A stretch of DNA of 64,000 nucleotides from an uncultured Candidatus Saccharibacteria bacterium (GCA_964492195.1 CAZBJL010000004.1:3621-67620), one strand, 5' to 3'; positions 8,207 to 64,000 are shown, numbered from the stretch's first letter. Program-made: numbers and translations. Notes: generated from the sequence alone by a model not told the origin.

Positions 8207-8209
8207 CTC

Positions 8210-10055: not shown

Positions 10056-10057
10056 AA

Positions 10058-10324: not shown

Positions 10325-10348
10325 TCATAAGTAAGGTAGAATCAAGGC

Positions 10349-14216: not shown

Positions 14217-14651
14217 ATGTTAATCGGAGAGTACACGCATACTATTGATGAAAAGAATCGTGTCTCTCTTCCAGTTAAGTTTCGTAAGGAAGTTGGTAAA
14301 AAAGTTGTCATCACACACGGTCTCGACAACTGTATCTTTCTTTACGCGATGAATGAATGGATGCAGGTCGCAGATAAATTAGGAGGTTTGGGAATTGGCC
14401 AATCTGATACGCGAGGCTTTAATCGTTTTATGCTCGCAGGTGCAGTTGAAGTTGAAGTTGATTCTATCGGTCGAATTTTGATCCCAGATTTTCTCAAGAA
14501 GTTTGCGGACCTTGCGGAAAAAGTAATTTTCACGGGCGTCCATAACAGAGTAGAAATTTGGAACAGCGATCGTTGGAATGAATACAAGAAGAAGATTGAG
14601 AAGCAGGCCGACAAGCTTGCAGAAAAGTTGGGAGAAATTGGTGCTCTGTAA
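14217..14651 (+). CDS. mraZ: Transcriptional regulator MraZ
   Basis: 144 aa, duplicated MraZ/SpoVT-AbrB-like halves (…DEKNRVSLPVKFR… and …DSIGRILIPDFL…). Confidence 0.9.
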   Translation: MLIGEYTHTIDEKNRVSLPVKFRKEVGKKVVITHGLDNCIFLYAMNEWMQVADKLGGLGIGQSDTRGFNRFMLAGAVEVEVDSIGRILIPDFLKKFADLAEKVIFTGVHNRVEIWNSDRWNEYKKKIEKQADKLAEKLGEIGAL

Positions 14652-14661
14652 TATCTAGGTC

Positions 14662-15552: not shown

Positions 15553-15877
15553 CATGTCTATCAGATCAAAAGTAAGTGCTCACATAACTGGAAGCGGCGT
15601 ATTTTGGCCTCTCGTTGGTCTTATCGTCTTTGTTGCAGTGTTCTACATCTATTCCGTCAACAAAACGGTTATTTTGGTGGCGCAGCGAAATCACATCGAA
15701 TCAAACATCTCTGACGTTCGGGCACAGATCACAAATCTTGAATCTTCTCGTATCGGTGCAATGGATGACATTACCCTTGAACTCGCACAGTCTATGGGCT
15801 ACGAAGAGGCAACACACGTTGTGTACATTCCTCAAAAAGCAGTGAGCGTTTTGAGCAAAGCTGATACAATTCAATAG
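15539..15877 (+). CDS. ftsL: FtsL-like cell-division protein (small bitopic membrane protein with coiled-coil)
   Basis: 112 aa, single TM (VFWPLVGLIVFVAVFYIY), coiled-coil after it. Position is between rsmH and ftsI. Confidence 0.5.
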   Translation: MKKNNMSIRSKVSAHITGSGVFWPLVGLIVFVAVFYIYSVNKTVILVAQRNHIESNISDVRAQITNLESSRIGAMDDITLELAQSMGYEEATHVVYIPQKAVSVLSKADTIQ

Positions 15878-15880
15878 ATA

Positions 15881-17593: not shown

Positions 17594-17621
17594 TGAGGTA
17601 TTATTGTGACAGCAGACCTGT

Positions 17622-35380: not shown

Positions 35381-36688
35381 TTAAAAATAGAGCAATGGGT
35401 TGAGGTATGCGCGAATGTCAGCAACGGGAATGATTGCGTTTTTGCAATTAATACTGTTTTCGTATTTAACAATCTTAACACCTTGCGATGCATATACGCC
35501 AAAGTGAAGATGTGCGCCAGCTGGCCCTGCTGGAACAACGTAGCCTGTGTAGCCGCTGTATCCAACGATGTCGCCAGTTGCTACGCGTTGACCCGGAGTA
35601 ACTTTGATCAAACTTAAATGAGCGTAGAGGCTTGAAAGCCCGTTGTCGTGTCGCACAAGGACCCATCTGCCGTATGAAAAACATCCTGGTACAACGTCTG
35701 TATCGCCAACACCTTCCACGGTGCCGGTAAGTACCGCCATGACTTTTGTACCTGTTGTGGCTCTAAAATCAACACCGTTGTGACCTTTGCCGTTATAGGC
35801 ATTTGTTGTTTTGGAAAATTCAGTATCACCGAAATACTGCGTAATATAAATATTTTCAAGCGGCCAGGTAAGAATTCCCTCACCCGCGCTTGGGTAGCTG
35901 CTTGGATTGATAATAAATTTGAGTTGGCTTTCGTATTGATTCAATTCCTGTCGAAAGGCTTCACCAAGACGCTTTTTTTCTTCGAGTTGAAGTTTATATG
36001 TTGCTTCTTTGCTTTGAGTAACAGAAAGGAGTTTGGTTTTTTCGGATTTGTTTATATCAGCAATTTTTTTCTGATCTTCAAGCGTTCCCTTAAGTCCGAG
36101 CAAGCTTACTTTTTTTGTTTCAGTTGCTTCTTTCTTTTGAGCGAGCTGCTTTTTTAATTCCCGTACCGCTTCAATGTTGCCCTTAAGTGCGGTTTGAAAT
36201 CTACTTAATGATTCAATTTCATTCCATACATCGGCAGCAGTGTCGTGTGCAAGAAGAATCTCAACCATAGAAAAATTTTCTGCTTGGTTCGAAGCGCGGA
36301 TCGCCCCTCCAAGTGCGGACTGACTCGTTTGAATTTTCTTCTCACCGTCAATAATTTCTGATTCAAGTTCTGAAATGCTTAGGCTTGTCGCGCTCACCTG
36401 GTTTTGGGTAATTTCGAGCTCTTTTGCAAGTTTGCTTCGCTGAGTGTCGAGTACGCTGATGGTGCTTTTGAGTGTCTGACCTTCTTTTGCTGTTTCCTGG
36501 ATTTGCCCATCAAGCTGTTTGATTTCTTTATTCAACTGCTCGATTTTGGCATTTCGATCAGCAATATTTTTCTTAATTGTTTCTATTGCAGCATCGTCAG
36601 CTCCTTGTGCATTTTTAAACTGGGGACCACCAAGTACGAGGAGGAGTAAAAGAAAGAGAAGACTGATTTTAAACAGTGCTCTATTCAT
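35381..36688 (-). CDS. M23-family peptidoglycan DD-metalloendopeptidase with N-terminal coiled-coil (EnvC-like)
   Basis: Signal peptide, about 230-aa coiled-coil, C-terminal LytM domain (HNGVDF...YAHLS...GYTGY...HLHFGVY). Confidence 0.85.
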   Translation of the reverse strand: MNRALFKISLLFLLLLLVLGGPQFKNAQGADDAAIETIKKNIADRNAKIEQLNKEIKQLDGQIQETAKEGQTLKSTISVLDTQRSKLAKELEITQNQVSATSLSISELESEIIDGEKKIQTSQSALGGAIRASNQAENFSMVEILLAHDTAADVWNEIESLSRFQTALKGNIEAVRELKKQLAQKKEATETKKVSLLGLKGTLEDQKKIADINKSEKTKLLSVTQSKEATYKLQLEEKKRLGEAFRQELNQYESQLKFIINPSSYPSAGEGILTWPLENIYITQYFGDTEFSKTTNAYNGKGHNGVDFRATTGTKVMAVLTGTVEGVGDTDVVPGCFSYGRWVLVRHDNGLSSLYAHLSLIKVTPGQRVATGDIVGYSGYTGYVVPAGPAGAHLHFGVYASQGVKIVKYENSINCKNAIIPVADIRAYLNPLLYF

Positions 36689-38075
36689 TATTTTTTAATT
36701 TGCTTTCGGCCAAGGCAAGACGTGTGAGACTTTCTTTTCTTCCAAGAAGTGCAATGAGAGTGAACGGATCAGGAGATTTATTTTTGCCAGTAAGCGCAAA
36801 ACGGATTGGCCAGAGAACTGCGCCGCGGCCGTGTTCGGTGGCGTAGTTCCACACAAGTCCTTTTACACTTTCGCTCTCTGTTAACGCTGCATCCGGAGCA
36901 TTTTCAATAATCGCAATGATCTCTCGCAAAAATTCTTGAGTTCTTTCGGAATCTTTTTCGTCTCTCCAAAGTAAGTCTTTGATATCGTACTCTGGGCTTT
37001 CAAATAAATAATCAAAATCTCCCGCGTCAAACAAAGCGACGATGTCTGAATATACATCAATTCTGTCAATTAAAGCCGGCACAAGTTTTACCAAAAGTTC
37101 ATCAGAAAGTTTCCATTTCTTTTCTTTGTATACCGCTGAACTTTCGATAAATGGTCGGATTTCAAGAGCGATTTCCTGATGCGTTTTCCTTTTCAAATAT
37201 TCTCTGTTGACCCAGCGAAGTTTTTCTTCGTTATATACCGCGCCTGCTTTTTGGACTTGGGCAATATTAAATCGCTTTATGAGTTCCGCTGGTGTAAAAA
37301 ATTCCTCCTCTGTTCCAGGATTCCATCCAAGCATCGCCATATAATTAATAATTGCTTCAGGGAAGTATCCTTGGTCTTTGAAATATTTAAGAGAAATTTT
37401 TTCGCCGTGTTTGCGTTTTGAAAGTTTCGTTCGATCGCTTGAAAGAATAAGCGGTAAATGCGCATATATTGGCCGTGGAGCGCCGATTGCTTCTTGGATG
37501 AGGATTTGTCGCGGAGTGTTTGAAATATGATCTTCGCCGCGAATAATGTGGGTTACGCCTGCTTCGAAATCATCAATAACAACAGCCAAATGATATACCG
37601 GCTCGGTAAGGCTTCGTGCAATGACAAAATCACCGAGTTCCTTTGTGTCAAAAGAAATTTCACCGCGAATAAGATCGGTAAAGGTAATATTTTTATTTGG
37701 GTTTTTAAAACGGATTACTTCTGGCCGTTTTGTTGGGTCGCCGCCGGTGTCTTCTTTTGAAACATACGCAAAACCGTCTTTGATTATTTTTTCTAGATAC
37801 AGACGGTACACCTCCCCTCTTTCTGACTGTCGAAGGATTTTTTTATTATCCCAGTGCAAACCAAGCCACGTGAGGTTCGCAATAAGTTCAGTTTCGTATT
37901 CTTTTGTGGACCGTTCTTTGTCCGTATCTTCAACCCGAAAAATAAATTCTCCGTCATGCTGTTTTGCGTACAGAAAATTATAAATTGCAGTACGAACATT
38001 TCCCATTTGCAAAAGACCTGTCGGACTTGGTGGAAATCGAGTAATTATTTTTTTGTAATTTTCGGAGTTTTTCAT
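36681..38075 (-). CDS. gltX: Glutamyl-tRNA synthetase
   Basis: TRFPPSPTGLLQMGNVRTAIYNFLYAKQHDGEFIFRVEDTD and KLSKR; 464 aa. Confidence 0.9.
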   Translation of the reverse strand: MKNSENYKKIITRFPPSPTGLLQMGNVRTAIYNFLYAKQHDGEFIFRVEDTDKERSTKEYETELIANLTWLGLHWDNKKILRQSERGEVYRLYLEKIIKDGFAYVSKEDTGGDPTKRPEVIRFKNPNKNITFTDLIRGEISFDTKELGDFVIARSLTEPVYHLAVVIDDFEAGVTHIIRGEDHISNTPRQILIQEAIGAPRPIYAHLPLILSSDRTKLSKRKHGEKISLKYFKDQGYFPEAIINYMAMLGWNPGTEEEFFTPAELIKRFNIAQVQKAGAVYNEEKLRWVNREYLKRKTHQEIALEIRPFIESSAVYKEKKWKLSDELLVKLVPALIDRIDVYSDIVALFDAGDFDYLFESPEYDIKDLLWRDEKDSERTQEFLREIIAIIENAPDAALTESESVKGLVWNYATEHGRGAVLWPIRFALTGKNKSPDPFTLIALLGRKESLTRLALAESKLKNNE

Positions 38076-38078
38076 ATA

Positions 38079-39206
38079 TTAGATTTCGTGTTTCATAGCA
38101 ATTGAAAGGATTTCTTTCGCGATCGCTCGTGCTGCGTCTGGTTTAAAGAAATTTTTTGCTGCAGTTCCCATATTCGCACGTTCGTTTGTATTATCCATAA
38201 TGCGGTCAATTTCGGATGTGAGGATGTGAGACGTCACGTTTGACTCCTCAAGCACCACGCAGGCTTTATTTCTCGCGTACGCATACGCATTTTTTCTTTG
38301 ATGGTCTCCGTGGGATTCGGTGATCGGAATAAGTATCGACGGAAGGCCCCATGACGCGATTTCAAAAATTGCCGAGCCTGCACGCGAAATAACGAGGCTT
38401 GATGCCCCTGCCGCCATTCGGAGACTTAATTCGTTGAGGTAATCAAACGCTTTGTATCGTGAAGCATGTCTGTTGTTGAAAAGAATTGCATCAGCTCGTG
38501 AAGTAATGTCTTCAAAATTATTTTTGCCGGTTTGATGAATAATCTGATATTTCTCTACGAGCTGTGGAAGTGTATCTACAATAATGTTGTTTATCATCTG
38601 GGCACCAAGTGAGCCGCCGAGAACTAAAAGAGTTGGAACATCACGATCAAGTTTCAAAAATTCATGCGCACCTTCAGTGAGAGGCTCGGTAATTTCTTTT
38701 CGAACAGGGTTGCCGGTAACCTGAACTTTTTCTTGCGGAAAGAATTTCCCCGCTTCATCAAAAGAAACTGCAATTCGTTGTGCAAACTTCCCCGCGAATT
38801 TATTTACTCGGCCAGGTACAGTGTCGGACTCATGGATAACGACGGGAATTCTAAAAAAACGTGCAGCAATGAGTACGGGAAAGCTCGCATATCCTCCTTT
38901 GCTGAACACAACATCAGGATAAATTGAAAATACTGTCCAAAGCGCTGTTAAAACTCCCCACCCTGTTTTAAAGAAATCAAAAAAGTTTTTGGAAGAACGG
39001 TAAAGCCGTTTTTTCCCCGCAGAATTTTTTTTGTAAAGGATGTTATTGTCAAACAAAAGCGCCGCATTGTACGGTGTGTCGGAAATATAATAAAGCTGTG
39101 GTGCGAGAAGTCGATATTCTTTTGAAAGTTTTTGGATTTCCTCGGCAACAGAGAGTATTGGATAAAAATGCCCACCCGAACCTCCACCAGTAAAAAGAAT
39201 CTTCAT
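38079..39206 (-). CDS. murG: Undecaprenyldiphospho-muramoylpentapeptide beta-N-acetylglucosaminyltransferase MurG
   Basis: MKILFTGGGSGGHFYP...; GT28 N- and C-terminal domains. Confidence 0.9.
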   Translation of the reverse strand: MKILFTGGGSGGHFYPILSVAEEIQKLSKEYRLLAPQLYYISDTPYNAALLFDNNILYKKNSAGKKRLYRSSKNFFDFFKTGWGVLTALWTVFSIYPDVVFSKGGYASFPVLIAARFFRIPVVIHESDTVPGRVNKFAGKFAQRIAVSFDEAGKFFPQEKVQVTGNPVRKEITEPLTEGAHEFLKLDRDVPTLLVLGGSLGAQMINNIIVDTLPQLVEKYQIIHQTGKNNFEDITSRADAILFNNRHASRYKAFDYLNELSLRMAAGASSLVISRAGSAIFEIASWGLPSILIPITESHGDHQRKNAYAYARNKACVVLEESNVTSHILTSEIDRIMDNTNERANMGTAAKNFFKPDAARAIAKEILSIAMKHEI

Positions 39207-39223
39207 GTCTTTGATTATTTAAA

Positions 39224-40330
39224 TTACGTCGTTGTTTTTTGAAAACGGGAAATATTGAGAACGATTCCGGCTTCGGCGAGGGTCATAAAGAGGGCGGTGC
39301 CACCATGACTTACAAAGAGGAGTGGAATCCCCGAAATCGGCAAAAGCCCAACCATTGCGCCAATATTGAAGAATGATTGAGTAACAATCAGTATAACAAT
39401 TCCAAATGCCAGGAGTCCACCAAAGGTGTCGGGCGAATTCATGGCGATTCTCATGCCACGAAACGTAAAAAATAAGTATAAAAATATAAGGGAAACGCCG
39501 CCCACAAAACCGAATTCTTCCGCCATTACGGCAAAGATCGAGTCGCCAATCGGTTCGGGTAAGAAGTTGAACTTCTGGACGCTTTGCCCAAATCCCCGCC
39601 CAAACATTCGTCCTGACCCGATCGCAATTAATGATTGATTGAGTTGGTAACTTGATCCTTGAATGTCGCGAGCGGGATTTATAAATGTTGCAAGACGATC
39701 CCGAATATACGGCCTCGTAAACGCAACAACGGAGAGGCCGATTGCCGCAAGGAGAATAATAAGAAGCAAATGTTTCCATTTTCCCCCGCTTACGACATAC
39801 ATCGAAATAGCCGTACCGCTCAGAATAACGAATGTGTCAGTGTCCGGCTGGCTCAAAAGGATTAAGCCAACAAGGCCGCACAGTAAAATCAAAGGTAAAA
39901 TTCCAAATTTAAAAATCTCCACGTTCTTTTTTACTCCAGAAAGCCAGGCGGCAATGTAGATTAAAAAACCAATTTTCAAAAACTCGGATGTTTGGACCGA
40001 AAACGAACCAATAATGATCCATCGTGATGCGCCACCGTGAGTAAAGCCGATTCCGGGCACAAACACGAGGAGGGTGAGAAGGATTGATAGAAGAAAAATA
40101 TAGAATGCGTACTTTCTCCAGAATAGGTAGTTAATTCGTGAGGTAATGACACATGCAACAGTTCCTAAAAACAAACCAAGAAAAATTTGGGAAAAAGCGA
40201 CGCTCGTAAAGTTGGCTCCCGCGCGAGCAAACAAACCAAGTGATGCGGAAGAGAAAATGAGAAAACCAGTAACAGTCATTACAATGACCGAAGTTAAAAA
40301 CCATCGGTCGAATCGATTTTCTCGTTTCAT
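39224..40330 (-). CDS. ftsW: SEDS-family peptidoglycan glycosyltransferase (FtsW, by neighbourhood murG/mraY)
   Basis: 10-TM SEDS protein with the conserved periplasmic loop. Internal Met 40330 chosen, which avoids overlap with mraY. Confidence 0.8.
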   Translation of the reverse strand: MKRENRFDRWFLTSVIVMTVTGFLIFSSASLGLFARAGANFTSVAFSQIFLGLFLGTVACVITSRINYLFWRKYAFYIFLLSILLTLLVFVPGIGFTHGGASRWIIIGSFSVQTSEFLKIGFLIYIAAWLSGVKKNVEIFKFGILPLILLCGLVGLILLSQPDTDTFVILSGTAISMYVVSGGKWKHLLLIILLAAIGLSVVAFTRPYIRDRLATFINPARDIQGSSYQLNQSLIAIGSGRMFGRGFGQSVQKFNFLPEPIGDSIFAVMAEEFGFVGGVSLIFLYLFFTFRGMRIAMNSPDTFGGLLAFGIVILIVTQSFFNIGAMVGLLPISGIPLLFVSHGGTALFMTLAEAGIVLNISRFQKTTT

Positions 40331-40352
40331 TGTTTTTATTATTGCACACGAA

Positions 40353-41417
40353 TTACCCAATGAGCCCTAAAATCATGCCGGCAACTGCACAGACAACTCC
40401 CAAAATCCAGAATCGCATCGTTACTTTGTAGGCGGGCCAGCCAAGTGCTTCAAAATGATGATGAAGTGGGGCAATAAGAAACACCTTCTTTCCATTACGA
40501 AACTTTTTTGAAGTAATTTGAATAATATTCGAAACCGAAGTCGCAAAAAGCGGCAACGCGATAATCGGAAGTACAAGTAGACCATATCCATCACCGAGTC
40601 TGTCTGTCATAAAGGCAATCACGGCAAGAGTCATCGTAAGACCCATAGTTCCCGTTTCAGACATATAGTAGCGGGCGGGCGGGATATTGAACCACAGAAA
40701 AGCCAGTATTGCCCCCACTATAAGCGCACAGAAGGCCGCTAGATCGATCTGTTGCTGATAGAAGGCAATTCCCCCATAAGCGGCAAAAATGCTCGCAAAA
40801 ATGCCTCCTGCGAGCCCATCAATACCGTCGATAACCCCTCCAGAATAAATAGCCAAACTGACCAACATAAAGAGCGGAATAAAGAAGTATCCGAGCTCGA
40901 TTCCAAATCCATGTGGTAAACCAATCGAAGAAATATCAAGCTTGAAGAAAAACCAGAGACCGCAGAGAAGTCCGACCGTTGCAACAACCATGAGCCGCTT
41001 TTTTAATGAAAGACCGCCTTTTTTAACTGGGTTTTCTCTTACTTCCAAAAAGTCATCGATAAGTCCAATGAATCCACCGATAAAAAGTGCAGAGAGTGGA
41101 ATCCATGTCTGATTTCTACTCAAAAAATCGATCTTTTGTGCATCCGGAAAAATCTGACCAATAAGCCAGAAAAGAATAATCGTTGCTCCTGCTGAAAGCC
41201 AAATAACCGAGCCACCCATTCGAGGCACCTTCACTTCCCTTTCTTTGTGGAGTTCATTAAAAAGCGGAGTAGCTTTTCCGGAAAGATCTATCTTCCCCGC
41301 CTGCTTTTTCCACATTCTGTATTTGTAGAGTTGCGCGGTAAGAATTGGGGTGATGAGAATACCACTTGCAAATGCGAGCACCGACGGCAGAGAAACTTTT
41401 ACGATATCGATAATCAT
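40353..41417 (-). CDS. mraY: Phospho-N-acetylmuramoyl-pentapeptide-transferase MraY
   Basis: 354 aa polytopic; conserved DD...D and HHH-loop regions (APLHHHFE). Confidence 0.9.
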   Translation of the reverse strand: MIIDIVKVSLPSVLAFASGILITPILTAQLYKYRMWKKQAGKIDLSGKATPLFNELHKEREVKVPRMGGSVIWLSAGATIILFWLIGQIFPDAQKIDFLSRNQTWIPLSALFIGGFIGLIDDFLEVRENPVKKGGLSLKKRLMVVATVGLLCGLWFFFKLDISSIGLPHGFGIELGYFFIPLFMLVSLAIYSGGVIDGIDGLAGGIFASIFAAYGGIAFYQQQIDLAAFCALIVGAILAFLWFNIPPARYYMSETGTMGLTMTLAVIAFMTDRLGDGYGLLVLPIIALPLFATSVSNIIQITSKKFRNGKKVFLIAPLHHHFEALGWPAYKVTMRFWILGVVCAVAGMILGLIG

Positions 41418-41434
41418 GTAGGTATTATAGTGTC

Positions 41435-42397
41435 TTATTTACCAATCATTGCAATTGTTGCATCGATAAGTTTTTGAATGTCGGTGAAGCGTCCGTCGTA
41501 CGTAGAACCAATCACGACCGCGACGTATGGGCCTTCGAGTCCCGGTGAAAACGCGACAATTAAATTGCCTCCAGCCAAATCGGTAAAGCCGGTTTTCGAA
41601 CCAATGATACCAGGCACTGTTTCAACAGACGTATTTGTATTTTTAATATTATGAACACCGCTCTTTTCAGAAACAATTTCAAGTTTTGAATGAGTAGTTG
41701 GTTCGAGAAGATCAGGATGGTTTTGTAAAATGTAATCCATGAGAACTGCCATGTCTTTGGCGTCACCGTACGCACCGCTCTTTTCGGTATTCAAATCAAG
41801 ACCGCTGTCATTATAGAAATTAACCGATGCAAGACCGATCTTTTGAGCGCGATCGTTCATGTACTGGACGAAGAGTTCTTTTGGATCAGCAGCCTTGTTT
41901 CTCATGAGGAATGAACCTGCGGCGGAAGCGATTACGTTTGCTCCAGCATTTGATGAAGTAATGAGCGTATGAGAAATGAGGTCTTTTGTCGTCCAGTTGT
42001 CATTGACTTGGAGTTGTGAGTCATTTGCGTCCAAAAGATATTCTTTTGCGATGCGGATAGTCGAATGTTGTGGAAGGAGCTCTGTTGCGGCAAGTGCGGT
42101 CATAAGTTTTGTAAGAGATGCAAGAGGCAGAATCTCATTTCCATTTCTTTGATATATAAAATTTCTATTTCGAACATCCCACACCACAGCTGCCCGCGCA
42201 GAAAGTGTAAGTGTGTCAAACGGTGTACTTGTGGCTGCGGGGTGGTTTATAACGACAGGACGAGTAATGTCGTCAGTTTTTTTATATGGATTTTGTGAAA
42301 AAGAAAAGAGATAGAAAATTACGACAATAACAACACCGACTACGCCGATGGCAATAAAAACTTTATCATTCTTGTTTTGTATTTCAGAGTTGTCCAT
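41435..42397 (-). CDS. dacA: D-alanyl-D-alanine carboxypeptidase (S11, PBP5/6-like)
   Basis: SxxK (ASLTKLMT), SxN (TSSNAGAN), KTG (SKTGFTD); N-terminal TM. Confidence 0.85.
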   Translation of the reverse strand: MDNSEIQNKNDKVFIAIGVVGVVIVVIFYLFSFSQNPYKKTDDITRPVVINHPAATSTPFDTLTLSARAAVVWDVRNRNFIYQRNGNEILPLASLTKLMTALAATELLPQHSTIRIAKEYLLDANDSQLQVNDNWTTKDLISHTLITSSNAGANVIASAAGSFLMRNKAADPKELFVQYMNDRAQKIGLASVNFYNDSGLDLNTEKSGAYGDAKDMAVLMDYILQNHPDLLEPTTHSKLEIVSEKSGVHNIKNTNTSVETVPGIIGSKTGFTDLAGGNLIVAFSPGLEGPYVAVVIGSTYDGRFTDIQKLIDATIAMIGK

Positions 42398-53205: not shown

Positions 53206-53430
53206 TTACAGACGTTTGACTATTCTACCTTTACCACCATATGGATCAATTTCGATTGAAACTTTATCTCCGATGAGAACACGAATTCTGTGGAGCCTCA
53301 TTTTGCCCGCTAAGTACGTCAGTATTTCGTTTTCCTCACCTTCAATTTTTACTTTGAAAAGCGTATTTGGAAGTGATTCCGTAACTACACCAGACACAGT
53401 TTTAACCGGTTTTTTATTGTCTTGCATCAC
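53206..53430 (-). CDS. infA: Translation initiation factor IF-1
   Basis: 74 aa; S1-like OB fold (...[22 protein letters not shown]...). Confidence 0.95.
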
Positions 53431-53500: not shown

Positions 53501-54847
53501 CTATAAAGCCGGCTCAACGATAACTTTTATCTTGTCAGAGTTCTTTGGAAGTGTGAAGAACCAGACGGGGGTTATTGTGACATTTGCCTTCTCTATTGAG
53601 TCGAAATCTGCCAAACGAGCGCTTACATTAGACCTTTTTTGGCCAACCAAGCTGTCGGAAATTTGAACCTGGTCGATCTGCCAGACGAACTTTGCATTAC
53701 CAGCAAGCTTGAATGAGAGCGTTTTACTTGTTGCAGGATTAAAGGTGGCAATATTGTCTATTGAGAACGTAAGTGAATCGAGATTTGCTACATCAACATT
53801 TTTATTTTCACCACTGATTTGAAGATTGGTTAAGAATTTCGAAAGATCTTCTTTTGCAAAAATGATTCCGTAAATATCCCCTTTTTCTGTAATGAGCGCA
53901 GTTGAGGTACTTGTGTTGGCACCTTGAGGTAATTCTGCAAAGCTAAACGTTGAAGCGTTCTTGAATAAAATATGAGTGTCAGGAATCTGTGAAGCCAAAG
54001 TGTCCTGAAGGTCGTTCTTGAGCTTTGTTTCTATTGCGGCTTTTGCTGAAGCGGCGTCTGTAGGGGTAACTTTTTTAACTACCCCAGAAAAACCACCGGC
54101 AATAGGAGATGCGGGGTCAGATTTTGCTGAAAACTTTTCGAATCGAGGGTCACCTTTGAATCCAGGAATGGTGAAATCAGCAAGACCAATGTTGTACGAA
54201 GTTCCAGGCTGGTCAGCGTATACCGTTACCGCAATAGTTCCCGGAGTAGCGACACCGTTGGTTATTTTCTGTCCTGGCACGGTAACCTGGTCAGCAATTC
54301 TAAAAATGAGGCCTTCCGATGTTTCAAAACGGGTCTTTGCAATGAGAACTTGGGGTGAAGCGCTGTAGTTGTTGTAAATAACAACCTTGCCGGATGCTTT
54401 TTTATCTACTTTCTCTTCTCCACTGGCTCGGACCTCTTTGTTTGACTGGCGGCTCAAGGTGACGATTGTGTACGCAAGCTGGCCGTCTGTAGGTTCGAGA
54501 GCTGCAGTGCCAGAGATGTTTATAGGAAGGTTCGACTCTTTAGGGGTAACGGTAACGGTCGCTGATACAAAAAGGAATGAACCTGCGTAGAGAAAGACAA
54601 AAAGAATGGCGACAGCTCCTGCCCAAACCCAGATCTTCCTTGAACCCTTGCTTGTTTTAGAAGACTTCGGTGGAGTTTTTTTGATTGGTTTTTCTTGTAC
54701 TGCTTCTTCTGGAATCTTTTTTGTAATCACTTCCTTTGGAGCATCTTCGACAGGTGCAGCAAAATCTGATTTAGCATCAGGTAAAGGAATATTCCTGATT
54801 GAACGTCGGCTGCCTGGAACTATATCTTGTACAAATTTTTTAGGCAT
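53501..54847 (-). CDS. Bitopic membrane protein with Lys/Pro-rich cytoplasmic N-terminus and ~350-aa extracytoplasmic beta-rich domain, hypothetical
   Basis: TM helix VWAGAVAILFVFLYAGSFLFV after a ~70-aa basic N-terminus. Immediately downstream of the actin-like ATPase gene, with a 7-nt gap. Confidence 0.6.
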   Translation of the reverse strand: MPKKFVQDIVPGSRRSIRNIPLPDAKSDFAAPVEDAPKEVITKKIPEEAVQEKPIKKTPPKSSKTSKGSRKIWVWAGAVAILFVFLYAGSFLFVSATVTVTPKESNLPINISGTAALEPTDGQLAYTIVTLSRQSNKEVRASGEEKVDKKASGKVVIYNNYSASPQVLIAKTRFETSEGLIFRIADQVTVPGQKITNGVATPGTIAVTVYADQPGTSYNIGLADFTIPGFKGDPRFEKFSAKSDPASPIAGGFSGVVKKVTPTDAASAKAAIETKLKNDLQDTLASQIPDTHILFKNASTFSFAELPQGANTSTSTALITEKGDIYGIIFAKEDLSKFLTNLQISGENKNVDVANLDSLTFSIDNIATFNPATSKTLSFKLAGNAKFVWQIDQVQISDSLVGQKRSNVSARLADFDSIEKANVTITPVWFFTLPKNSDKIKVIVEPAL

Positions 54848-54854
54848 TATGATT

Positions 54855-56018
54855 TCATTTTACAAGAGTCGGATGTTGTTTGTAAACAATTTCACTGTGT
54901 GGAAGTCGGTTGTGAATGTAGATTGAAGAAAGCGCCACAAAAATATTTGGCATTTCGTCAGTACCGAACTCCGCAAACTGAGAAAGATTTGATCGAGAAA
55001 GAGAAATTGTGTTCGGAGTTTGTTTTTCGAGTATGTCTTTAAACACCGCGGAAATATTTTGATCTGAAATAAAGAAAGATCGCTGTGGCAAAAAATGTTC
55101 GTGGTCACTTCCCTTCTCCTGAACTGCCGTTTGGAGACATAATCGCCATTCTTCGCCAAAAGCTGCCACAAGTGCCTTCATTTTTTCCTTCATTTCAGCA
55201 TCGGCGGTGTCACTCGCATAGAGGTTGATGAGCGTACCAGCGAGTTCGGGGTGTGTGTCGAAATGCACCGCAACATTCCGTACAAGGTGGTTTTTGCCAA
55301 GCGGAAGTGAAATAACCGACGAGATTGAACCATGTCGAACAACAAGAACATCACTTACTTCACTCCCAATATCTATAAAAATAAAGTCTTCTTTGGGAGC
55401 AAAGAGCGGCACAATAACGTTCCAGGCAACAAAGGGAAGGCTGTGGAAGGTTACAGCCGTCGGATGGATCAACGTATGAATTTCAGAGTCGATTTTCTTG
55501 CACAAATCCTCGGAAGTGATTCCGGCATAGACCGAAAGATCAATTGATTTTGCTGATTTTCCATATGGATTAATGGTTTCGTAGCCATTTAACTTTATAT
55601 GAGATGGGATCTTTTCAATAAGAACGTCAGTGTCTCCGATATTGTTCTTAGAAATTGATTTGATCTGTTCATCGACAAGTTTTTCGATCATTTTTTGAGA
55701 CACAACAAAGGCAGACTCGCTTTTGAGACTTACCTGTTTAGAAAAAGAAGAAAACCACGGAGAAGCGAGCACAATGCTCACTGTGTGGATTCTTTTTCTG
55801 TGTTTTTCGTGAAGAGTTTTTACAACTGTCTGCAACGCGGCAAACATATGTGTAGACAAACTTTCTGCAGTGATTTTTTCTTTTACAGGAAACTGCGATT
55901 CATGAGTAAGCTCAATTTTTGGTAGTAAGCCCTTGGTGAATTGCACAACAGAGCCCGACACTCCGCCGCTTCCAATAAAAATAACGAGATCGTGTTCTTT
56001 TGAGCTTAGAAAGGACAT
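54855..56018 (-). CDS. Divergent actin-like (ASKHA) ATPase-fold protein (FtsA/PilM/Ppx-GppA-like)
   Basis: N-terminal LVIFIGSGGVSGSVV (phosphate-1-like, but the usual Asp is replaced by Phe). Later FIFIDIGSEVSDVLVVRHGSISSVISLPLGKNHL matches the DIGGGTTD / ...PLGG... region of FtsA/PilM/Ppx. Confidence 0.55.
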   Translation of the reverse strand: MSFLSSKEHDLVIFIGSGGVSGSVVQFTKGLLPKIELTHESQFPVKEKITAESLSTHMFAALQTVVKTLHEKHRKRIHTVSIVLASPWFSSFSKQVSLKSESAFVVSQKMIEKLVDEQIKSISKNNIGDTDVLIEKIPSHIKLNGYETINPYGKSAKSIDLSVYAGITSEDLCKKIDSEIHTLIHPTAVTFHSLPFVAWNVIVPLFAPKEDFIFIDIGSEVSDVLVVRHGSISSVISLPLGKNHLVRNVAVHFDTHPELAGTLINLYASDTADAEMKEKMKALVAAFGEEWRLCLQTAVQEKGSDHEHFLPQRSFFISDQNISAVFKDILEKQTPNTISLSRSNLSQFAEFGTDEMPNIFVALSSIYIHNRLPHSEIVYKQHPTLVK

Positions 56019-56042
56019 TGAATCCTTATAGTATAACAGAAC

Positions 56043-57830
56043 CTACGATAGAGTAGCTTTGATTCTCCTCACACCTGCAGACACGGCTTCTTCTTTTGCG
56101 ATTGTGAAAGTACCAAGTTCACTCGTACGTGTCACATGCGGGCCACCACAGATTTCTCTGCTGAAAATTCCCGTTTCTTCATTGCCAATTGTATAGACAC
56201 GAACAATATCTGCGTATTTTGCACCAAACACACCTTCGGCATTGAGTTCGCGTGCTTCCTGAAGCGGCATTTCTTTGAACGTAACTTCGAGGTCCTTCGC
56301 GATCACTGAATTAATAAGACCCTCAACTTCTTTCTTCTCAATATCAGTTAGTTTGGCGGTGTGGGCAAAATCAAATCGAAGCCGTTCAGGTGTAATGTTG
56401 CTTCCCTTTTGTTCAACATGACTTCCCAATACTTTTTTTAGAGCAGCGTTTAAAAGATGGGTTGCGGTGTGGTACTGAACAGATTTTTCACTTGTATCAG
56501 CAAGACCGCCTTTGAATTTTTGTTCGGAACTAGAGCGAGAAAGATCCTGGTGTTTCTTAAATTCATCATCGATTGCCGCAACATCAACAGTAATTCCCTG
56601 TTCTTTGGCCAATTCAATCGTAAGATCAACCGGAAAACCGAAACTTGAGAACAACGTGAAAACTTCTTTAGTAGAAATTGCGCCATTTCGAGACAATTTC
56701 GAAAATTCTTTAAGACCACCTGCGAGAGTTTTTCTGAATTTTATTTCTTCTTCAGAAATAACAGAAATAATTAGGTCAAAAACAGCAGAAATATTTTCGT
56801 AGACCTGTGCGTATGTTTTTGGAATAGTTTCAGCGATTTTTAAGATTCCACCTTCTTCTATTCCAAGGCTATCAGCAAATCGAACTGCTCTTCGGAGAAG
56901 ACGGCGAAGAATATAGCCCCGATCAGTGTTAGAAGGAGTAACTCCATCGGCAATCATAAAAACACTCGTACGAATATGGTCGGCGACGATTCTTTCAACA
57001 CGAATATCACTTTTTTGTGCCAATGCGCGAACTGCTTCAATAGTAGGAGCGAGCAAATCTGTTTCAAAAATACTGTCGACGTTTTGCATAATAATTGCGA
57101 GACGTTCGAGACCAGCTCCGGTGTCGACATTTTTCTGCTTCAATTTTCCAACGAGTACACCGTCCCGTTTCTCGTATTCCATAAAGACGTCGTTCCAAAT
57201 CTCTACAATTTTTTGTTCAGAATCAGCTTTGTTAAAAGCGTCAACATTTTCTAATTCACCAACGGTTCCGGTAATGTCGTAAAACATTTCGGTGCTTGGT
57301 CCGGTAGGGCCGGTCCACGTATCTTTTCCTTTTACAGACGGCCACCAGTTTGAATCCACACCTTTATAGAAAATTCGACTTTGTGGCAAACCAGCTTTCA
57401 TCCAAAGAGCAACAGACTCATCATCTCGTGGAATTTTTTCATCTCCTTCAAAAACAGTCACATACAGACGCGCAGGATCGAGTCCAAGACCTTCGGTTTT
57501 TGATGTTAAAAATTCATAACTCCACGCAATTGCTTCTTCTTTGAAATAACTGCCAAGAGACCAGTTTCCAAGCATTTCAAAAAAGGTGGCGTGAGTTTTG
57601 TCACCAATGTCTTCGATATCCGTCGTTCGAACGCATTTCTGAACATCGACAATTTTGTCGCCGTTTGGGTGTTTTTCACCCATAAGGTATGGCACGAGCG
57701 GCTGCATGCCGGCAGTATTAAAAAGGACGCTTGGGTCATTAACCGGGACAAGCGATGCGGATGGAATAATCGTATGCCCACGATTCTCAAAAAAAGTAAG
57801 GAATCGTTTTCTGATTTCGGACGATGTCAT
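56043..57830 (-). CDS. alaS: Alanyl-tRNA synthetase lacking the C-terminal C-Ala domain
   Basis: Start at MTSSEIRKRFLTFFENRGH... (the upstream track extension overlaps the udg gene). Catalytic and tRNA-recognition domains are present. Editing-domain motifs HTATHLL and CGGPHV are present. The protein ends about 600 aa in (...GVRRIKATLS). Confidence 0.9.
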   Translation of the reverse strand: MTSSEIRKRFLTFFENRGHTIIPSASLVPVNDPSVLFNTAGMQPLVPYLMGEKHPNGDKIVDVQKCVRTTDIEDIGDKTHATFFEMLGNWSLGSYFKEEAIAWSYEFLTSKTEGLGLDPARLYVTVFEGDEKIPRDDESVALWMKAGLPQSRIFYKGVDSNWWPSVKGKDTWTGPTGPSTEMFYDITGTVGELENVDAFNKADSEQKIVEIWNDVFMEYEKRDGVLVGKLKQKNVDTGAGLERLAIIMQNVDSIFETDLLAPTIEAVRALAQKSDIRVERIVADHIRTSVFMIADGVTPSNTDRGYILRRLLRRAVRFADSLGIEEGGILKIAETIPKTYAQVYENISAVFDLIISVISEEEIKFRKTLAGGLKEFSKLSRNGAISTKEVFTLFSSFGFPVDLTIELAKEQGITVDVAAIDDEFKKHQDLSRSSSEQKFKGGLADTSEKSVQYHTATHLLNAALKKVLGSHVEQKGSNITPERLRFDFAHTAKLTDIEKKEVEGLINSVIAKDLEVTFKEMPLQEARELNAEGVFGAKYADIVRVYTIGNEETGIFSREICGGPHVTRTSELGTFTIAKEEAVSAGVRRIKATLS

Positions 57831-57852
57831 GGAAGCATTATACGTGGCCTCG

Positions 57853-58479
57853 CTATACAAGAGAAGCGATGACTGCAAAATCTTTTTTAAGCCCCCCTTT
57901 TGTACCACCGTTATACAGAGCCACCGCTGGATGGTAGAGTGGAACAATTTTTACTTTTCCGTATGAAACAGTGGCTTCATAAATCTTGCCATGAGCCTGG
58001 GAAATCGGCAGGATTTCAGATTCAAGACCGAATTTTTTCATAATATATACCATCGAAAAACGCCCAAGCGTTGCAATTACTCTTGGCTTAATAATGTCGA
58101 TCTGACGGTCCAAAAATGGTCCGTAGAGTGCAATTTCATCTGGAAGTGGATCACGATTATTTGTCGGTCGATCCTTCACAATATTTGTTACATACACTGA
58201 TCCGCGCGGCATATTGATAGAAGCAAGAAGTTCATCCAAAATTCTACCCGACGCGCCGCAAAATGGCCGGCCGGTTTCAGCTTCATTTTTACCAGGAGCT
58301 TCGCCTATAAACATTATTTTTGCGAAATGGTCGCCTTCCCCAATTACAGGATGTGCCTTGTTTGCAATTCTCTCCTTATACAGTGGCGATACAGAAAAAT
58401 TTAATACGTCATCTTTCACTTGCTTCATACGCTCGTGACGATTTTCTACGTCTTTAGTTTGTTCGAGTTCGGACGTCAT
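57853..58479 (-). CDS. udg: Uracil-DNA glycosylase, family 4
   Basis: GEGDHFAKIMFIGEAPGKNEAETGRPFCGASGRIL: the family 4 UDG signature (GEAPG..E...G.PF.G.AG). Confidence 0.85.
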   Translation of the reverse strand: MTSELEQTKDVENRHERMKQVKDDVLNFSVSPLYKERIANKAHPVIGEGDHFAKIMFIGEAPGKNEAETGRPFCGASGRILDELLASINMPRGSVYVTNIVKDRPTNNRDPLPDEIALYGPFLDRQIDIIKPRVIATLGRFSMVYIMKKFGLESEILPISQAHGKIYEATVSYGKVKIVPLYHPAVALYNGGTKGGLKKDFAVIASLV

Positions 58480-61458: not shown

Positions 61459-62688
61459 TTAAATCGGCAAATTAGCTGGAGCTTCGCTTTTCTTAGAACC
61501 AATTTTAGTAAGAGTTGGAGTACCAACAACCTTGCCTGGCAAATGGAAGATAGTCGCGATTTCTTCTGTCGTAAGGATGAACGGTTTAGCCATGATGTAT
61601 TTGTATGGAATCTGGAAGAAAGATCGGAGTTTGTAGGCATTGAGAAGGCTTATTTCGCGCGCACGCTGGCGATGCTGACGGAAATCCTGCCACGGGTAAT
61701 CGAAACCAGTTCCGCCTCCTATCCTGATTTCATTCAAAGACTGGGATCCGTATTGCCTAAAACTACCAATAAGCCCGGTAATACCGATAGGGTCAAATGC
61801 ATCCTTTCTCGCAATATAAAAACCCCTGATTCCAACTTCAAAAGGTAGCTTCGATAAGCTTCGTTCCAATGCAGCGATAACATCTTTCTCACCAGAAGTT
61901 GGGGCGCGTTTTCCAGCTCCTTCATCATCCCCACCACTAATGTCTTCTATCTTCTTTTTGATTTCTTTTTTGGCCTTGTCCGTCCAATCAGGCCTTGCAA
62001 ACACAGCGTCGTCTTTCACACTCATTTTTCGATGAGCCTGAATCAAAATTTGAATCCAAACCTGCTCTCCGGCTTTAATGCTGCCTAAAAATTCCAACAC
62101 AGACGACATTGGATCAATTTTTGACTCTTCTTCTTGCTCCTTATCCAAACCATAGTCGATATATGTTTTTATTGGATAAATATCAGGCTTTTTTAATTTA
62201 AACGTTAGACCAACAAGAGACATCTCGCTTGGATCAACAAAAACTTTTTTGGTGTAGTCTTCAGTTTCGTAGATTTCAACACCCGGATATTGAGCGTAAA
62301 ATTGGGATTCAATTAATTGTCTGAATCTTGGCTGGGTCCAGATAAAAAAACGAACATTTCCTTCAATGGAAACTATTTCGAGAGAAAACCACGGTCTATA
62401 TTTCCCCTTCACAAATGTAGAAAGATAATCACTCGCACCTCCTTGAAACAGGGAGGTAATAATCATTTCCATTGCCGCAGGAGATTTAAACACGTCGCGG
62501 GGCAGTTTTATTTCAAGCAAAATACCACCGGCTTTCACTATTGCATTTGTCCGAACATATTTAAGCCAGATGGATATAAACATTCCAAGAAGCAATATCG
62601 GGAGCCACACTGGTGACGTTTGAAACAAAAGATGTATAACGACACCTAAAAAATTGGGTCTAAATGCAGGGAGAAGATCATTGAGCAT
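61459..62688 (-). CDS. Hypothetical membrane protein (409 aa: two N-terminal TM helices plus ~340-aa cytoplasmic domain)
   Basis: No Walker A or other recognisable catalytic motif. Tightly packed (2-nt gap) upstream of mltG. Confidence 0.6.
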   Translation of the reverse strand: MLNDLLPAFRPNFLGVVIHLLFQTSPVWLPILLLGMFISIWLKYVRTNAIVKAGGILLEIKLPRDVFKSPAAMEMIITSLFQGGASDYLSTFVKGKYRPWFSLEIVSIEGNVRFFIWTQPRFRQLIESQFYAQYPGVEIYETEDYTKKVFVDPSEMSLVGLTFKLKKPDIYPIKTYIDYGLDKEQEEESKIDPMSSVLEFLGSIKAGEQVWIQILIQAHRKMSVKDDAVFARPDWTDKAKKEIKKKIEDISGGDDEGAGKRAPTSGEKDVIAALERSLSKLPFEVGIRGFYIARKDAFDPIGITGLIGSFRQYGSQSLNEIRIGGGTGFDYPWQDFRQHRQRAREISLLNAYKLRSFFQIPYKYIMAKPFILTTEEIATIFHLPGKVVGTPTLTKIGSKKSEAPANLPI

Positions 62689-62780
62689 GATTTATTATAA
62701 CAAATTACGGTATATGCCTATACAAAACAATCCCCTGATTTCTCAAGGGATTGTTAAATCTATTCACAAAGAGGCTGTAT

Positions 62781-63830
62781 TTAAGCTAACGAGTACCGAT
62801 TCTGTTTGTCTTTTTTGAAGAATTTTGAATTCTGGAGGTTCACAAGAATGGTGTTTGGTTTCACGTATCGTTCCGTAAGTACCTTCTCAATGATTTTTTC
62901 CTTTGTAAGCGGACCATCCTTTTCGAGAATCTTTTTGATGACGTCTTTTACAACACCGCTCATATATCCCCACTCTGCGAGCGCATAGAGACCACGACCA
63001 ACAAGAACAAAACGAGGATCTTTAATGAGTTCGTTGTGTGTTGTTGCAACGTGCGCTTTTTTATTGAACACTTCTGTGATCAAACGAGCAACTTCACGGA
63101 AATGAATTGGAGAACCATGCTTTCGAATAACGAGAAACGCGTAATCTCGAACACCACGAGCATTGATGTTTGAAGATCCTGATTTACCCCATTCACCGAG
63201 CGGGTTTTTATTCAAAGACTTTGACATCCAGAGCCAACGCTTGATGACTTCTTCATTTTTGTACTCTTCGGAAACGTCTTTAATGTAAGAAAGGAATGAT
63301 TCGATGATTGTTGATTCTGGAACGATCGCATCGTCGTCGAGATCACTGTAAATCTTTCGGAGTGTTTCGTGAATTTTTTCGGCAAGCTTGTTGTCGATAT
63401 GCCAATGAGTTTTGAACTCTTCGTCTTCTTTATATTTTTTGAAATCTTCACCAACAACAAGGAGGAAATGAGTATGGTTTTGAGTAGATTTATCAGAAGA
63501 AAATTTATTTAAGAGGTCGTGCTCGGAAAGTACGCCACCAAGTCCAGAAAGATGCTGTTTCAATTCCTGAAACGCCTTCGTTTCTTTTTCGTACTCTTTT
63601 GATTTTCGAATATTGGTAATCGAGTGGTTTTCAATCTGACGAACTCGCTCACGAGTGATGCCGTATTTTTTACCAATTGATTCGAGTGTCATTTTCTTTG
63701 TTTCGGTACCGAGACCGTAACGGCTTGAAACAACATCGCGTCCGCGCTCAGAGAGAACTCCGAGTAAACGTTTCGTTACCTGCTTTGGATTAAATGACGG
63801 TGTTATTTGTTTTGTTTTCTTTTCACTCAT
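62781..63830 (-). CDS. Sigma-70 region 4 domain fused to a C-terminal HARE-HTH domain (putative transcription regulator)
   Basis: Start at ATG (MSEKKTKQ...); the track's TTG-start extension runs through the promoter. Region-4-like VLSERGRDVVSSRYGLGTETKKMTLESIGKKYGITRERVRQIENHSITNIRK. C-terminal HARE-HTH-like ...AFLVIRKHGSPIHFREVARLITE...RFVLVGRGLYALAEWGY. Confidence 0.65.
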   Translation of the reverse strand: MSEKKTKQITPSFNPKQVTKRLLGVLSERGRDVVSSRYGLGTETKKMTLESIGKKYGITRERVRQIENHSITNIRKSKEYEKETKAFQELKQHLSGLGGVLSEHDLLNKFSSDKSTQNHTHFLLVVGEDFKKYKEDEEFKTHWHIDNKLAEKIHETLRKIYSDLDDDAIVPESTIIESFLSYIKDVSEEYKNEEVIKRWLWMSKSLNKNPLGEWGKSGSSNINARGVRDYAFLVIRKHGSPIHFREVARLITEVFNKKAHVATTHNELIKDPRFVLVGRGLYALAEWGYMSGVVKDVIKKILEKDGPLTKEKIIEKVLTERYVKPNTILVNLQNSKFFKKDKQNRYSLA

Positions 63831-63865
63831 GATTTTTAATCGGCCTTTAATATAATTACGACAAA

Positions 63866-63894
63866 TTTTACTATCATTGCTGAAATTAGTCAAT
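63866..63894 (-). promoter_or_regulatory. Sigma-70-type promoter (TTGACT-17-TAAAAT) for the sigma-r4/HARE-HTH gene
   Basis: On the minus strand: ttgact (63894..63889), 17-nt spacer, taaaat (63871..63866), about 35 nt upstream of the ATG. Confidence 0.4.
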
Positions 63895-64000
63895 ACGTCT
63901 TGACATAAAGGCAAAATTTAGCCAATTACGAAGTTAATCAACTTATTTTTAACAAAAATCACCTTCTTGATTGTGGCTCCATTAAGCCATTTTTTTACAT

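Follow-up and report, generated by a model that had tools for sequence, protein, structure and literature searches.

A conserved gene pair of Paceibacteria encodes an FtsA/PilM-fold protein and a bitopic membrane protein with a baseplate-wedge-type ectodomain

In a 64,000-nt stretch of DNA filed under an uncultured Candidatus Saccharibacteria bacterium (CAZBJL010000004.1:3621-67620; hereafter the window), two genes on the minus strand lie between alaS and infA. The first (54855..56018) encodes a 387-residue protein of the FtsA/PilM fold, here termed A, and the second (53501..54847) encodes a 448-residue bitopic membrane protein, here termed B. We propose, with a probability of roughly 45%, that A and B constitute a two-gene envelope module that is distributed class-wide in Paceibacteria (Parcubacteria, Candidate Phyla Radiation (CPR)) and in which an FtsA-derived scaffold is recruited by its bitopic partner. 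In this proposal, A would act as a scaffold, not as an enzyme, and would reach the membrane via B, most likely by binding the conserved N-terminal peptide of B in a manner that parallels the binding of the PilN N terminus by PilM and of the FtsN N terminus by FtsA. Once at the membrane, A would oligomerize and then organize or cluster the outer domain of B, which would be the working part of the module, an extracytoplasmic platform that acts on the wall or the cell surface. A would be an accessory, because some lineages dispense with it. Candidate processes for the module are wall or surface assembly, division-associated remodeling, and cell-cell contact. No published description of either protein family was found in the literature.

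Protein A and its relation to FtsA

Protein A is not the product of a chance open reading frame (ORF). An exhaustive profile search recovered 3,325 representative clusters of the family at E ≤ 1e-3 and 1,396 at E ≤ 1e-30, and the members, judged from the best 150 of the 3,325 clusters, are mostly 370-415 residues in length. The gene starts with ATG, and its product is predicted to be cytoplasmic. The AlphaFold2 (AF2) model of A (pLDDT 85, pTM 0.85) was compared with the PDB using Foldseek, and the top 29 matches were all FtsA or PilM structures that aligned over the full length, with E values of 5e-21 to 6e-16 and template-modeling (TM) scores normalized to the query (TMq) of 0.56-0.72. For the FtsA entries 4a2a, 1e4g, 3wt0, and 7q6i, again over the full length, the E values were 5e-21 to 1e-16 and the TMq values were 0.59-0.72. 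The best TM match was the FtsA:FtsN(1-29) complex (7q6i, TMq 0.72), and the PilM:PilN(1-12) and PilM-PilN complexes were also among the best structural matches. The scores dropped sharply after this tier, with BT_3980, sugar kinases, Ppx/GppA, EutJ, ParM, and MreB matching at E values of 3e-10 or weaker and TMq values of 0.3-0.45. The position of the FtsA/PilM matches above this drop indicates that A has the subdomain architecture specific to FtsA and PilM, 1A-1C-2A-2B, with 1C replacing 1B in the predicted model. The same comparison led us to reject A as a Ppx/GppA phosphatase, as those structures gave TM scores of 0.32-0.36 and E values of approximately 1e-8, far weaker by fold than the FtsA/PilM matches. 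A first-pass annotation of this DNA had recognized FtsA/PilM/Ppx-GppA (ASKHA) fingerprints in an actin-like ATPase and had named best hits to exopolyphosphatases among the outcomes that would speak against its reading; the actin fold stands, and the best hits are FtsA and PilM.

On the basis of predicted secondary structure, an inserted 1C-type subdomain occupies approximately residues 86-146 of A (55581..55763, minus strand), with the near-invariant SPW (86-88) and LNGY (143-146) motifs at its borders. Trp88 is present in 170 of 172 family members and Tyr146 in 168. Glu135 and Pro151 are also near-invariant and, like SPW and LNGY, are located where the chain enters or leaves 1C, the region in which PilN binds PilM. 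Subdomain 2B, on which FtsA binds the C-terminal peptide of FtsZ, comprises 74 residues in A and is all-helical, as compared with 97 residues including a hairpin in Escherichia coli FtsA. Neither a hydrophobic segment (maximum KD19 of 1.5) nor an amphipathic tail (hydrophobic moment of 0.38) was detected in the window's A. Across the family, the tail beyond the core has a median length of 5 residues, and the C-terminal hydrophobic moment is 0.37 versus 0.61 in the canonical FtsA of Paceibacteria. By these sequence properties, A has no membrane anchor of its own, and the earlier remark that it has no FtsA-like C-terminal amphipathic helix holds for the family as well.

Sequence profiles place A nearer to FtsA than to PilM. 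The window's A is below threshold for both FtsA models, with 26 bits for Pfam FtsA PF14450 (gathering score 31.8) and 21 bits for TIGR01174 (cut-off 175.85), and its best PDB sequence match is also FtsA (E = 0.09). When 65 diverse A members were examined, TIGR01174 matched 49 of them (best E of 6e-7) and TIGR01175 (PilM; cut-off 133 bits) matched 7 (best E of 2e-5), the remaining 58 falling below the PilM model; weak matches to the Ppx-GppA Pfam were obtained for 27 (best E of 2e-5). Alignment of the A family by hhalign gave a probability of 91% against Paceibacteria FtsA (294 columns), 79% against E. coli FtsA (an exact match to 7q6d), and 33% against Pseudomonas aeruginosa PilM (an exact match to 5eox). 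These profile results indicate that A is a separate, unnamed family in Paceibacteria. Because it is closest to FtsA by profile, it is probably an old FtsA duplicate.

The nucleotide site of A departs from that of FtsA in two of its three loops. In the phosphate-1 loop (residues 13-22, IFIGSGGVSG; 55953..55982, minus strand), Phe14 occupies the position of the metal-site Asp. The loss of this Asp had been presented as a property of the protein in the first-pass annotation, and it is one for the window's A, but it does not characterize the family, whose consensus reads DIGSGSVGAAL: column 14 holds Asp in 128 of the 172 members (74%), and the loss is clade-specific. Position 14 is F, N, S, T, H, I, or Q within the window's own clade, and these varied, non-acidic residues point to relaxed constraint in that clade only. 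The phosphate-2 loop (residues 212-223, FIFIDIGSEVSD; 55350..55385, minus strand) aligns to DIGGGT of FtsA and DIGATM of PilM. Its family consensus is F.D(I/V)GGE(V/I)TD, with Asp216 in 156, the family-invariant Glu220 in 171, and Asp/Glu223 in 170 of the 172 members, and the window's A retains D216, E220, and D223. At the adenosine-loop (T/S)GG position (residues 315-321, FFISDQN; 55056..55076, minus strand), the glycines are replaced by (A/S)-Asp. D319 is present in 116 of the 172 members and Gly in only 11, and hhalign sets "F-l-t-a-D" of A opposite "i-i-t-G-G-G" of Paceibacteria FtsA. Given the acidic cluster, the Asp-containing members may still bind metal or nucleotide. The family-wide loss of GG, together with the loss of Asp14 in the window's A, argues for a structural, not a catalytic, role.

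The canonical FtsA of these organisms was identified through its gene neighborhood. FtsZ sequences of Paceibacteria were obtained from the supplement of PMC9871819, and one of them was used to gather 80 ftsZ loci from metagenomes; the FtsZ proteins of these loci are 61-83% identical to the Kaiserbacteria-type FtsZ. In CPR, ftsZ is reported to retain its FtsA context (PMC9871819). Approximately 55 of the loci include sufficient upstream DNA, and in these a co-oriented gene for a protein of about 389 residues precedes ftsZ by 40-340 nt. This protein matched E. coli FtsA with E values of 1e-29 to 1e-38 and the A-family profile with E values of only 1e-4 to 1e-12, and it scored 231-247 bits on TIGR01174. 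It starts with ...ITGIDVGTYQVKV, so that the phosphate-1 Asp is present (GIDVGT), and it ends in an amphipathic ...SILSWFSQFLP, approximately 34 residues past the last core motif. By its scores and its anchor-related features, A is a separate lineage from this ftsZ-linked FtsA and is probably FtsA-derived. No ftsZ was found within 10 kb of the A-B pair in the 78 loci with an intact B ORF. When ftsA and ftsZ were sought on the A-B contigs via the neighbors of MurG, neither was found, and the division and cell wall (dcw) gene block ends there with murG-gltX-M23, as in the window. Clear orthology to canonical FtsA with ftsZ beside it in relatives, which would have spoken against the earlier reading, was not seen: A is not the FtsA orthologue, ftsZ is never its neighbor in the 78 loci, and Paceibacteria possess their own ftsA-ftsZ pair.

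The canonical ftsA-ftsZ pair of Paceibacteria follows a ybeY-like gene, not ftsQ, and is detached from the other dcw genes (L091-L170; e.g., L091 with genes at 8172-8555, 8582-9751, and 9929-11245). On a 370-kb contig (L100, 5193-12877), ftsZ is without an adjacent ftsA and is flanked by homologues of genes at the right end of the window (61459-63914), one DUF8128-like (33% identity) and one sigma-70-like (49% identity). Given these flanks, ftsZ might be located just beyond position 64000 in the window's genome.

Protein B and the conserved gene pair

B, too, is not a chance ORF: its homologues comprise at least 863 clusters and were found in at least 478 species genomes in a scan of species-representative genomes. 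The gene starts with ATG. Forty members, down to 33% identity, have the same layout, in which a conserved N-terminal peptide is followed by an unalignable basic, proline-rich linker, one transmembrane helix, and a conserved ectodomain. A hydrophobic segment is located at approximately residues 71-101; the N-terminal 71 residues contain 17 Lys plus Arg versus 9 Asp plus Glu, and the 30 residues beyond the segment contain 1 versus 3. Hydropathy and flanking charges place the single transmembrane helix at approximately residues 72-95 (54563..54634, minus strand; 70-93 in the AF2 model) and indicate that B is bitopic, with its N terminus inside and its C terminus outside. In the AF2 model (pLDDT 82), residues 1-68 are disordered, and beta structure predominates in the ectodomain, which also has three long helices. 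Hydropathy, charges, and model thus agree with the original description of B as a bitopic protein with a basic cytoplasmic N terminus, one transmembrane helix, and a large outside domain, and the N-terminal peptide is conserved.

That peptide, residues 1-24 (MPKKFVQDIVPGSRRSIRNIPLPD; 54776..54847, minus strand), is predicted to be cytoplasmic and is the candidate docking motif; it is disordered in the model of B alone. Its consensus is M-x-K-x-(I/F)-x-Q-D-(I/V)-x-P-x-x-R-S-I-R-N-I-P-L-P. D8, P11, I17, and R18 are each at least 90% conserved across the 40 diverse members, and residues 25-69 are unalignable. The motif occurred in no other ORF in approximately 2.4 Mb of related sequence, comprising the window, the B loci, and the ftsZ loci.

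The extracytoplasmic region (residues ~96-448; 53504..54562, minus strand) is related by Foldseek to baseplate-wedge (J/gp6) proteins of phages (PF04865, PHROG 6). Fourteen PDB matches reached E ≤ 1e-3, namely 9 phage baseplate-wedge chains and 5 matches to the GlxA barrel. The baseplate chains, from phages Pa193, A-1(L), XM1, Mu, 7-7-1, and E217, gave alignments of 350-390 columns with E values of 3e-7 to 6e-4 and probabilities of 0.93-1.0. In BFVD, 26 proteins matched at the same threshold, and those with names were mostly baseplate J or baseplate wedge proteins. The most conserved portion of B is a beta-barrel at approximately residues 146-235 (54143..54412, minus strand), with invariant columns in the pattern NTRFET..GLI.RI..VPG..PG...V.V.AD..G..YN....DFTIPGFKGDP. 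PF21110, which describes the barrel of GlxA (a Streptomyces radical copper oxidase), matched 39 of the 40 members, the window's B scoring 20.6 bits against a gathering score of 27. PHROG_6 (baseplate wedge subunit) matched 36 of the 40, with a best E value of 7e-7 and over the barrel only, and PF04865 (baseplate J) matched 4 of the 40, with a best E value of 0.025. The Foldseek matches to GlxA structures 4unm and 5lqi had E values of about 1e-6 and 19-24% identity; only the barrel is common to the two proteins, as B is without the copper-oxidase domains (13.9 bits for NCBIfam GlxA versus a cut-off of 800). The global TM of the baseplate matches (~0.2) and the low count for PF04865 indicate that B and the baseplate-wedge proteins have domains in common in a different predicted arrangement. 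B also differs from J/gp6 in being membrane-anchored with a cytoplasmic peptide, and its gene belongs to the core genome and is not accompanied by genes for a tail, a sheath, or other baseplate parts. A cellular counterpart of baseplate J/gp6 exists in TssF of the type VI secretion system. Pfam detected no PilN, PilO, POTRA, or SPOR domain in the 40 B members, and no PilN or PilO structure was among the 50 Foldseek PDB matches listed for B. The proposed likeness to PilN, which had rested on the string SIRNIPLP (within RRSIRNIPLP, residues 14-23), is therefore not reflected in the ectodomain.

The coordinates, sizes, and spacing of the two ORFs between alaS and infA were confirmed, and the strings quoted in the first-pass annotation (the two given above and DIGSEVSD...VISLPLGKNHL at residues 216-245 of A) are all present. 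The spacer between A and B (54848..54854, minus strand) is 7 nt in length and has no Shine-Dalgarno sequence, and for this reason translation of B is probably coupled to that of A. A Shine-Dalgarno-like AAGGA (56023..56027, minus strand) is positioned 5 nt before the ATG of A, within the 24 nt that separate alaS (stop at 56043-56045) from A downstream. The infA gene (53206-53430) lies downstream of B after 70 nt. No terminator-like site was found between alaS, A, and B, and the counts from the promoter/terminator scan were within the shuffled expectation and carry no information.

Synteny was counted in the best 78 loci with an intact B ORF, from a scan that located B in at least 478 species. 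In 66 of these 78 genomes (85%), the gene directly preceding B, and co-oriented with it, is A. The pairing holds down to 33% B identity and approximately 20% A identity, and the two genes are thus a conserved pair. The gap from A to B has a median of 47.5 nt over 60 pairs, which are always co-oriented. In three relatives (including L001, a 617-kb contig), the gene order is (alaS or prfA)-A-B-infA-rpsM-rpsK-rpsD-rpoA-rplQ-rplM-rpsI-grpE, with dnaK next in two of them, and the proteins of about 400 residues upstream of B in these relatives are A homologues (hhalign E values of 1e-39 to 1e-50). The upstream neighbor varies, being prfA in L004 and alaS elsewhere, and the A-B adjacency is kept. No pil gene was present within 10 kb of A-B in the 78 loci, where the neighbors are always alaS/prfA and infA/ribosomal-protein genes.

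A is missing from 12 of the 78 loci, and where the upstream DNA suffices alaS leads straight to B (L031, L039, L048, L063, L077, L081, and L084). Shortened forms of A are encoded in L042 (9029-9940, 304 residues) and L053 (9138-9977, 280 residues); the profile matches on both sides, and positions ~103-182, corresponding to 1C, are gone. A third apparent truncation, in L080, proved to be an artifact of an N run. Comparison of these loci shows reductive evolution of A. The median identity to the window over 44 genomes is 26% for A, 37% for B, and 54-70% for the neighboring genes. By this measure, A and B are both fast-evolving, as adaptor or surface proteins are.

Explanations for the A-B pair

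The lack of an anchor in A and the conserved cytoplasmic peptide of B were counted in favor of docking, and two known systems provide precedents. PilM-PilN (TIGR01175, PF11104/PF05137) likewise comprises an anchor-less FtsA-class protein encoded just upstream of an N-in bitopic partner with a short conserved peptide; 2B has 67 residues in PilM and 74 in A, and A matches the PilM fold with TM scores of 0.56-0.67 normalized to the query. FtsA has the four-subdomain fold with 1C for 1B, is the nearest profile relative of A, has acidic phosphate-2 residues that are kept in A, and likewise contacts a bitopic protein, FtsN, by binding its N-terminal peptide (PMC7613929, 7q6i). There are also differences. 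Neither A nor B reaches the PilM or PilN family models, and pilO, pilB, pilC, and pilin genes are absent from the context; the ectodomain of B consists of approximately 350 residues of baseplate-wedge-type domains, whereas the PilN domain has approximately 200 residues with a coiled coil and a ferredoxin-like periplasmic fold. Relative to FtsA, with the TIGR01174 score of A at 21 bits against a cut-off of 176, A lacks both the C-terminal amphipathic helix and its linker, has an all-helical 2B with about 23 fewer residues, has Asp where FtsA has the adenosine GG, is never beside ftsZ, and is dispensable in some lineages of a class in which true FtsA also occurs. We conclude, by analogy, that A-B would be most like PilM-PilN and FtsA-FtsN in working principle and that by membership it is neither.

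Several observations weigh against the proposed module. The B motif is intact in the 12 A-less loci and in the two genomes in which A lacks 1C; from this it follows that the motif would have an A-independent role, unless another locus of those genomes encodes A. In seven genomes, A is retained and the B motif is degraded. The only co-varying position is Gly145 of A (in LNGY, at the 1A/1C junction), which is changed to Lys or Arg in 4 of 7 genomes with a lost B motif and in 0 of 57 with the motif (Fisher p = 8e-4). The substituted loci, with LN(K/R)Y, are L004, L043, L072, and L075, and the three other motif-less genomes keep LNGY. The scan compared 45 conserved A columns with motif presence, and the other columns had p values of ~0.03 or higher that do not survive correction for 45 tests. 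The Gly145 signal itself may reflect only one or two evolutionary events. Co-occurrence of A with canonical FtsA was established at the level of class or order, not within one genome, and gene order beside ribosomal genes can persist without functional coupling. For B, the low global TM of the fold matches and the sub-threshold Pfam scores mean that homology to the baseplate and GlxA proteins is firm for the barrel and less firm elsewhere. Taken together, the comparative sequence evidence for docking of the B peptide on A is mixed, and the co-variation support is thin. The B peptide may bind the groove of FtsA-class proteins generally, with canonical FtsA as an alternative or additional partner. 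Such general binding would accommodate both the persistence of the motif without A and the other docking evidence.

The main rival explanation, which we judge to be unlikely, is that B is a late-division analogue of FtsN whose peptide binds canonical FtsA, with A being an FtsA paralogue that competes or modulates. The persistence of the B motif where A is absent or has lost 1C is consistent with this possibility, as are the presence of canonical FtsA throughout the class, the closeness of A to FtsA by profile, the best TM match of A to the FtsA:FtsN(1-29) complex with its documented peptide contact, and the abundance of peptidoglycan enzymes in the window. The pair, however, is never near ftsA, ftsZ, or dcw genes, B has neither a SPOR nor a POTRA domain, and the short, all-helical 2B of A is unlike that of E. 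coli FtsA.

A second rival, less probable again, is that A and B are functionally unrelated and that their adjacency is frozen gene order heading the infA/ribosomal-protein block. In its favor, the entire alaS-A-B-infA-rpsM-rpsK-rpsD-rpoA-rplQ-rplM-rpsI-grpE-dnaK block is syntenic, B occurs without A in 12 of the 78 loci, and the presence of the motif and of A are not strictly linked. The adjacency nevertheless outlasts the change of the upstream gene from alaS to prfA, the spacing of A and B is tight, B offers the anchor that A lacks, and Gly145 co-varies with the motif. An elaboration of the preferred two-gene module seems to us about as improbable as this second rival. In it, B would be a domesticated phage baseplate-wedge protein that forms a ring- or lattice-like platform on the outer face of the membrane and is coupled by its peptide to an oligomer of A, a pseudo-ATPase, on the inner face. 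The resulting trans-membrane scaffold could position wall remodeling, a surface appendage, or a host-contact site in episymbionts, and cross-talk with true FtsA would explain the survival of the peptide after loss of A.

The first-pass annotation had suggested a PilM/PilN-like pair, and we consider it very unlikely that A-B serves as an alignment pair of the PilM/PilN type in a type IV pilus or a related fiber machine. A is anchor-less with a PilM-sized helical 2B, a bitopic protein follows it, the ...IRNIPLP of B loosely recalls the INLLP of PilN, and CPR bacteria widely possess type IV pili (PMC6744442). Against this, 58 of the 65 A members examined fall short of the PilM model, with an hhalign probability of only 33%, and A is nearer to FtsA by profile; B has neither the domains nor, among the 50 matches listed, the structural neighbors of PilN/PilO; the 78 loci have an alaS/infA context free of pil genes within 10 kb; and CPR genomes encode their own separate, co-localized PilM/PilN/PilO (PMC6744442).

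The two remaining explanations have very little to recommend them. That A is the organism's FtsA, relocated from ftsZ, would fit its weak Pfam FtsA and COG-type matches and the naming by the Joint Genome Institute of three A-family members (P0014, P0017, and P0021) as "cell division ATPase FtsA," but this was ruled out by the separate ftsA beside ftsZ in ~55 Paceibacteria loci, which passes TIGR01174, by the 21 bits of A on that model and its lack of a membrane-targeting helix, and by the loss of A in 12 lineages. Equally improbable is that A is a Ppx/GppA phosphatase or other ASKHA enzyme, or that the pair is a prophage remnant or defense module, for despite the weak Ppx-GppA matches in 27 of 65 A members and the baseplate-like domains of B, the Ppx/GppA structures reach a TM of only 0.32, the adenosine and phosphate-1 motifs of A are degraded, the PADLOC defense-system models matched neither A nor B, and the pair holds a core syntenic position in at least 478 species without other phage genes.

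Genomic setting and significance

The gene content of the window is of the Patescibacteria/CPR, Parcubacteria/Paceibacteria type, with mreBCD-pbp2, two dcw fragments, a short alaS, and a ribosomal-protein block, and homologues bear Zambryski-, Kaiser-, and Taylorbacteria names. Many TPA_asm records of metagenome-assembled genomes titled "uncultured Candidatus Saccharibacteria bacterium" (L007, L008, L010-L013, and others) contain the Paceibacteria-type A-B-infA locus, and on these records the Saccharibacteria label looks generic or wrong. The dcw genes of the window are split into mraZ-rsmH-ftsL-ftsI-murF at 14.2-18.9 kb (14217-18917, plus strand) and dacA-mraY-ftsW-murG at 38-42.4 kb; the latter belongs to a larger run (35381-42397, minus strand) with the order scpA-scpB-dacA(S11)-mraY-ftsW-murG-gltX-M23 peptidase, which is also kept on other Paceibacteria contigs (L089 and L090). 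A and B lie outside both fragments, as the first-pass annotation had stated when it placed neither gene in the division cluster. No ftsA, ftsZ, or pil gene was found within the 64-kb window, and no Pil domains were detected among those of its proteins that were scanned against Pfam.

The window is rich in peptidoglycan enzymes. It also encodes two MreB paralogues, one (2485-3498, plus strand) standing alone between murA and a holB-like gene and the other (8210-9271, plus strand) heading mreC-mreD-pbp2, and the actin-fold proteins therefore number three counting A, plus dnaK. The gene at 19518-22271 (minus strand) encodes 917 residues that include a signal-like segment at the N terminus, a PG_binding_1 domain, and a weak match to PKD; its product may be a large surface protein associated with the wall. 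The alaS gene (56043-57947, minus strand) is short, with at most 634 residues encoded in the window and 511-651 in relatives (L001, L002, L031, and L084), as compared with approximately 875 for a typical bacterial AlaS. Its Pfam matches stop at tRNA_SAD near the C terminus, and the C-terminal extension is apparently missing.

Few uncultivated bacteria are as abundant as Paceibacteria, and almost nothing is known of their cell biology. Within this class, A represents a third, unnamed family in the FtsA/PilM class of bacterial actins. The "FtsA" labels on A-family members can distort surveys of division genes, and double-counting or mis-assignment is possible in Paceibacteria. With B, a protein of the phage baseplate-wedge type appears in the core genome in membrane-anchored form; it is nearly universal in the class, and its gene is located at the head of the infA/ribosomal-protein block. 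The lineages without A or without 1C provide a natural experiment on the contribution of each part, and because the proteins are small and soluble or peptide-sized, the central claim is testable in vitro without cultivation. If A docks on B, the design seen in PilM-PilN and FtsA-FtsN, in which an anchor-less actin fold is joined to a bitopic partner by the N-terminal peptide of the latter, would be found with a further, new type of ectodomain.

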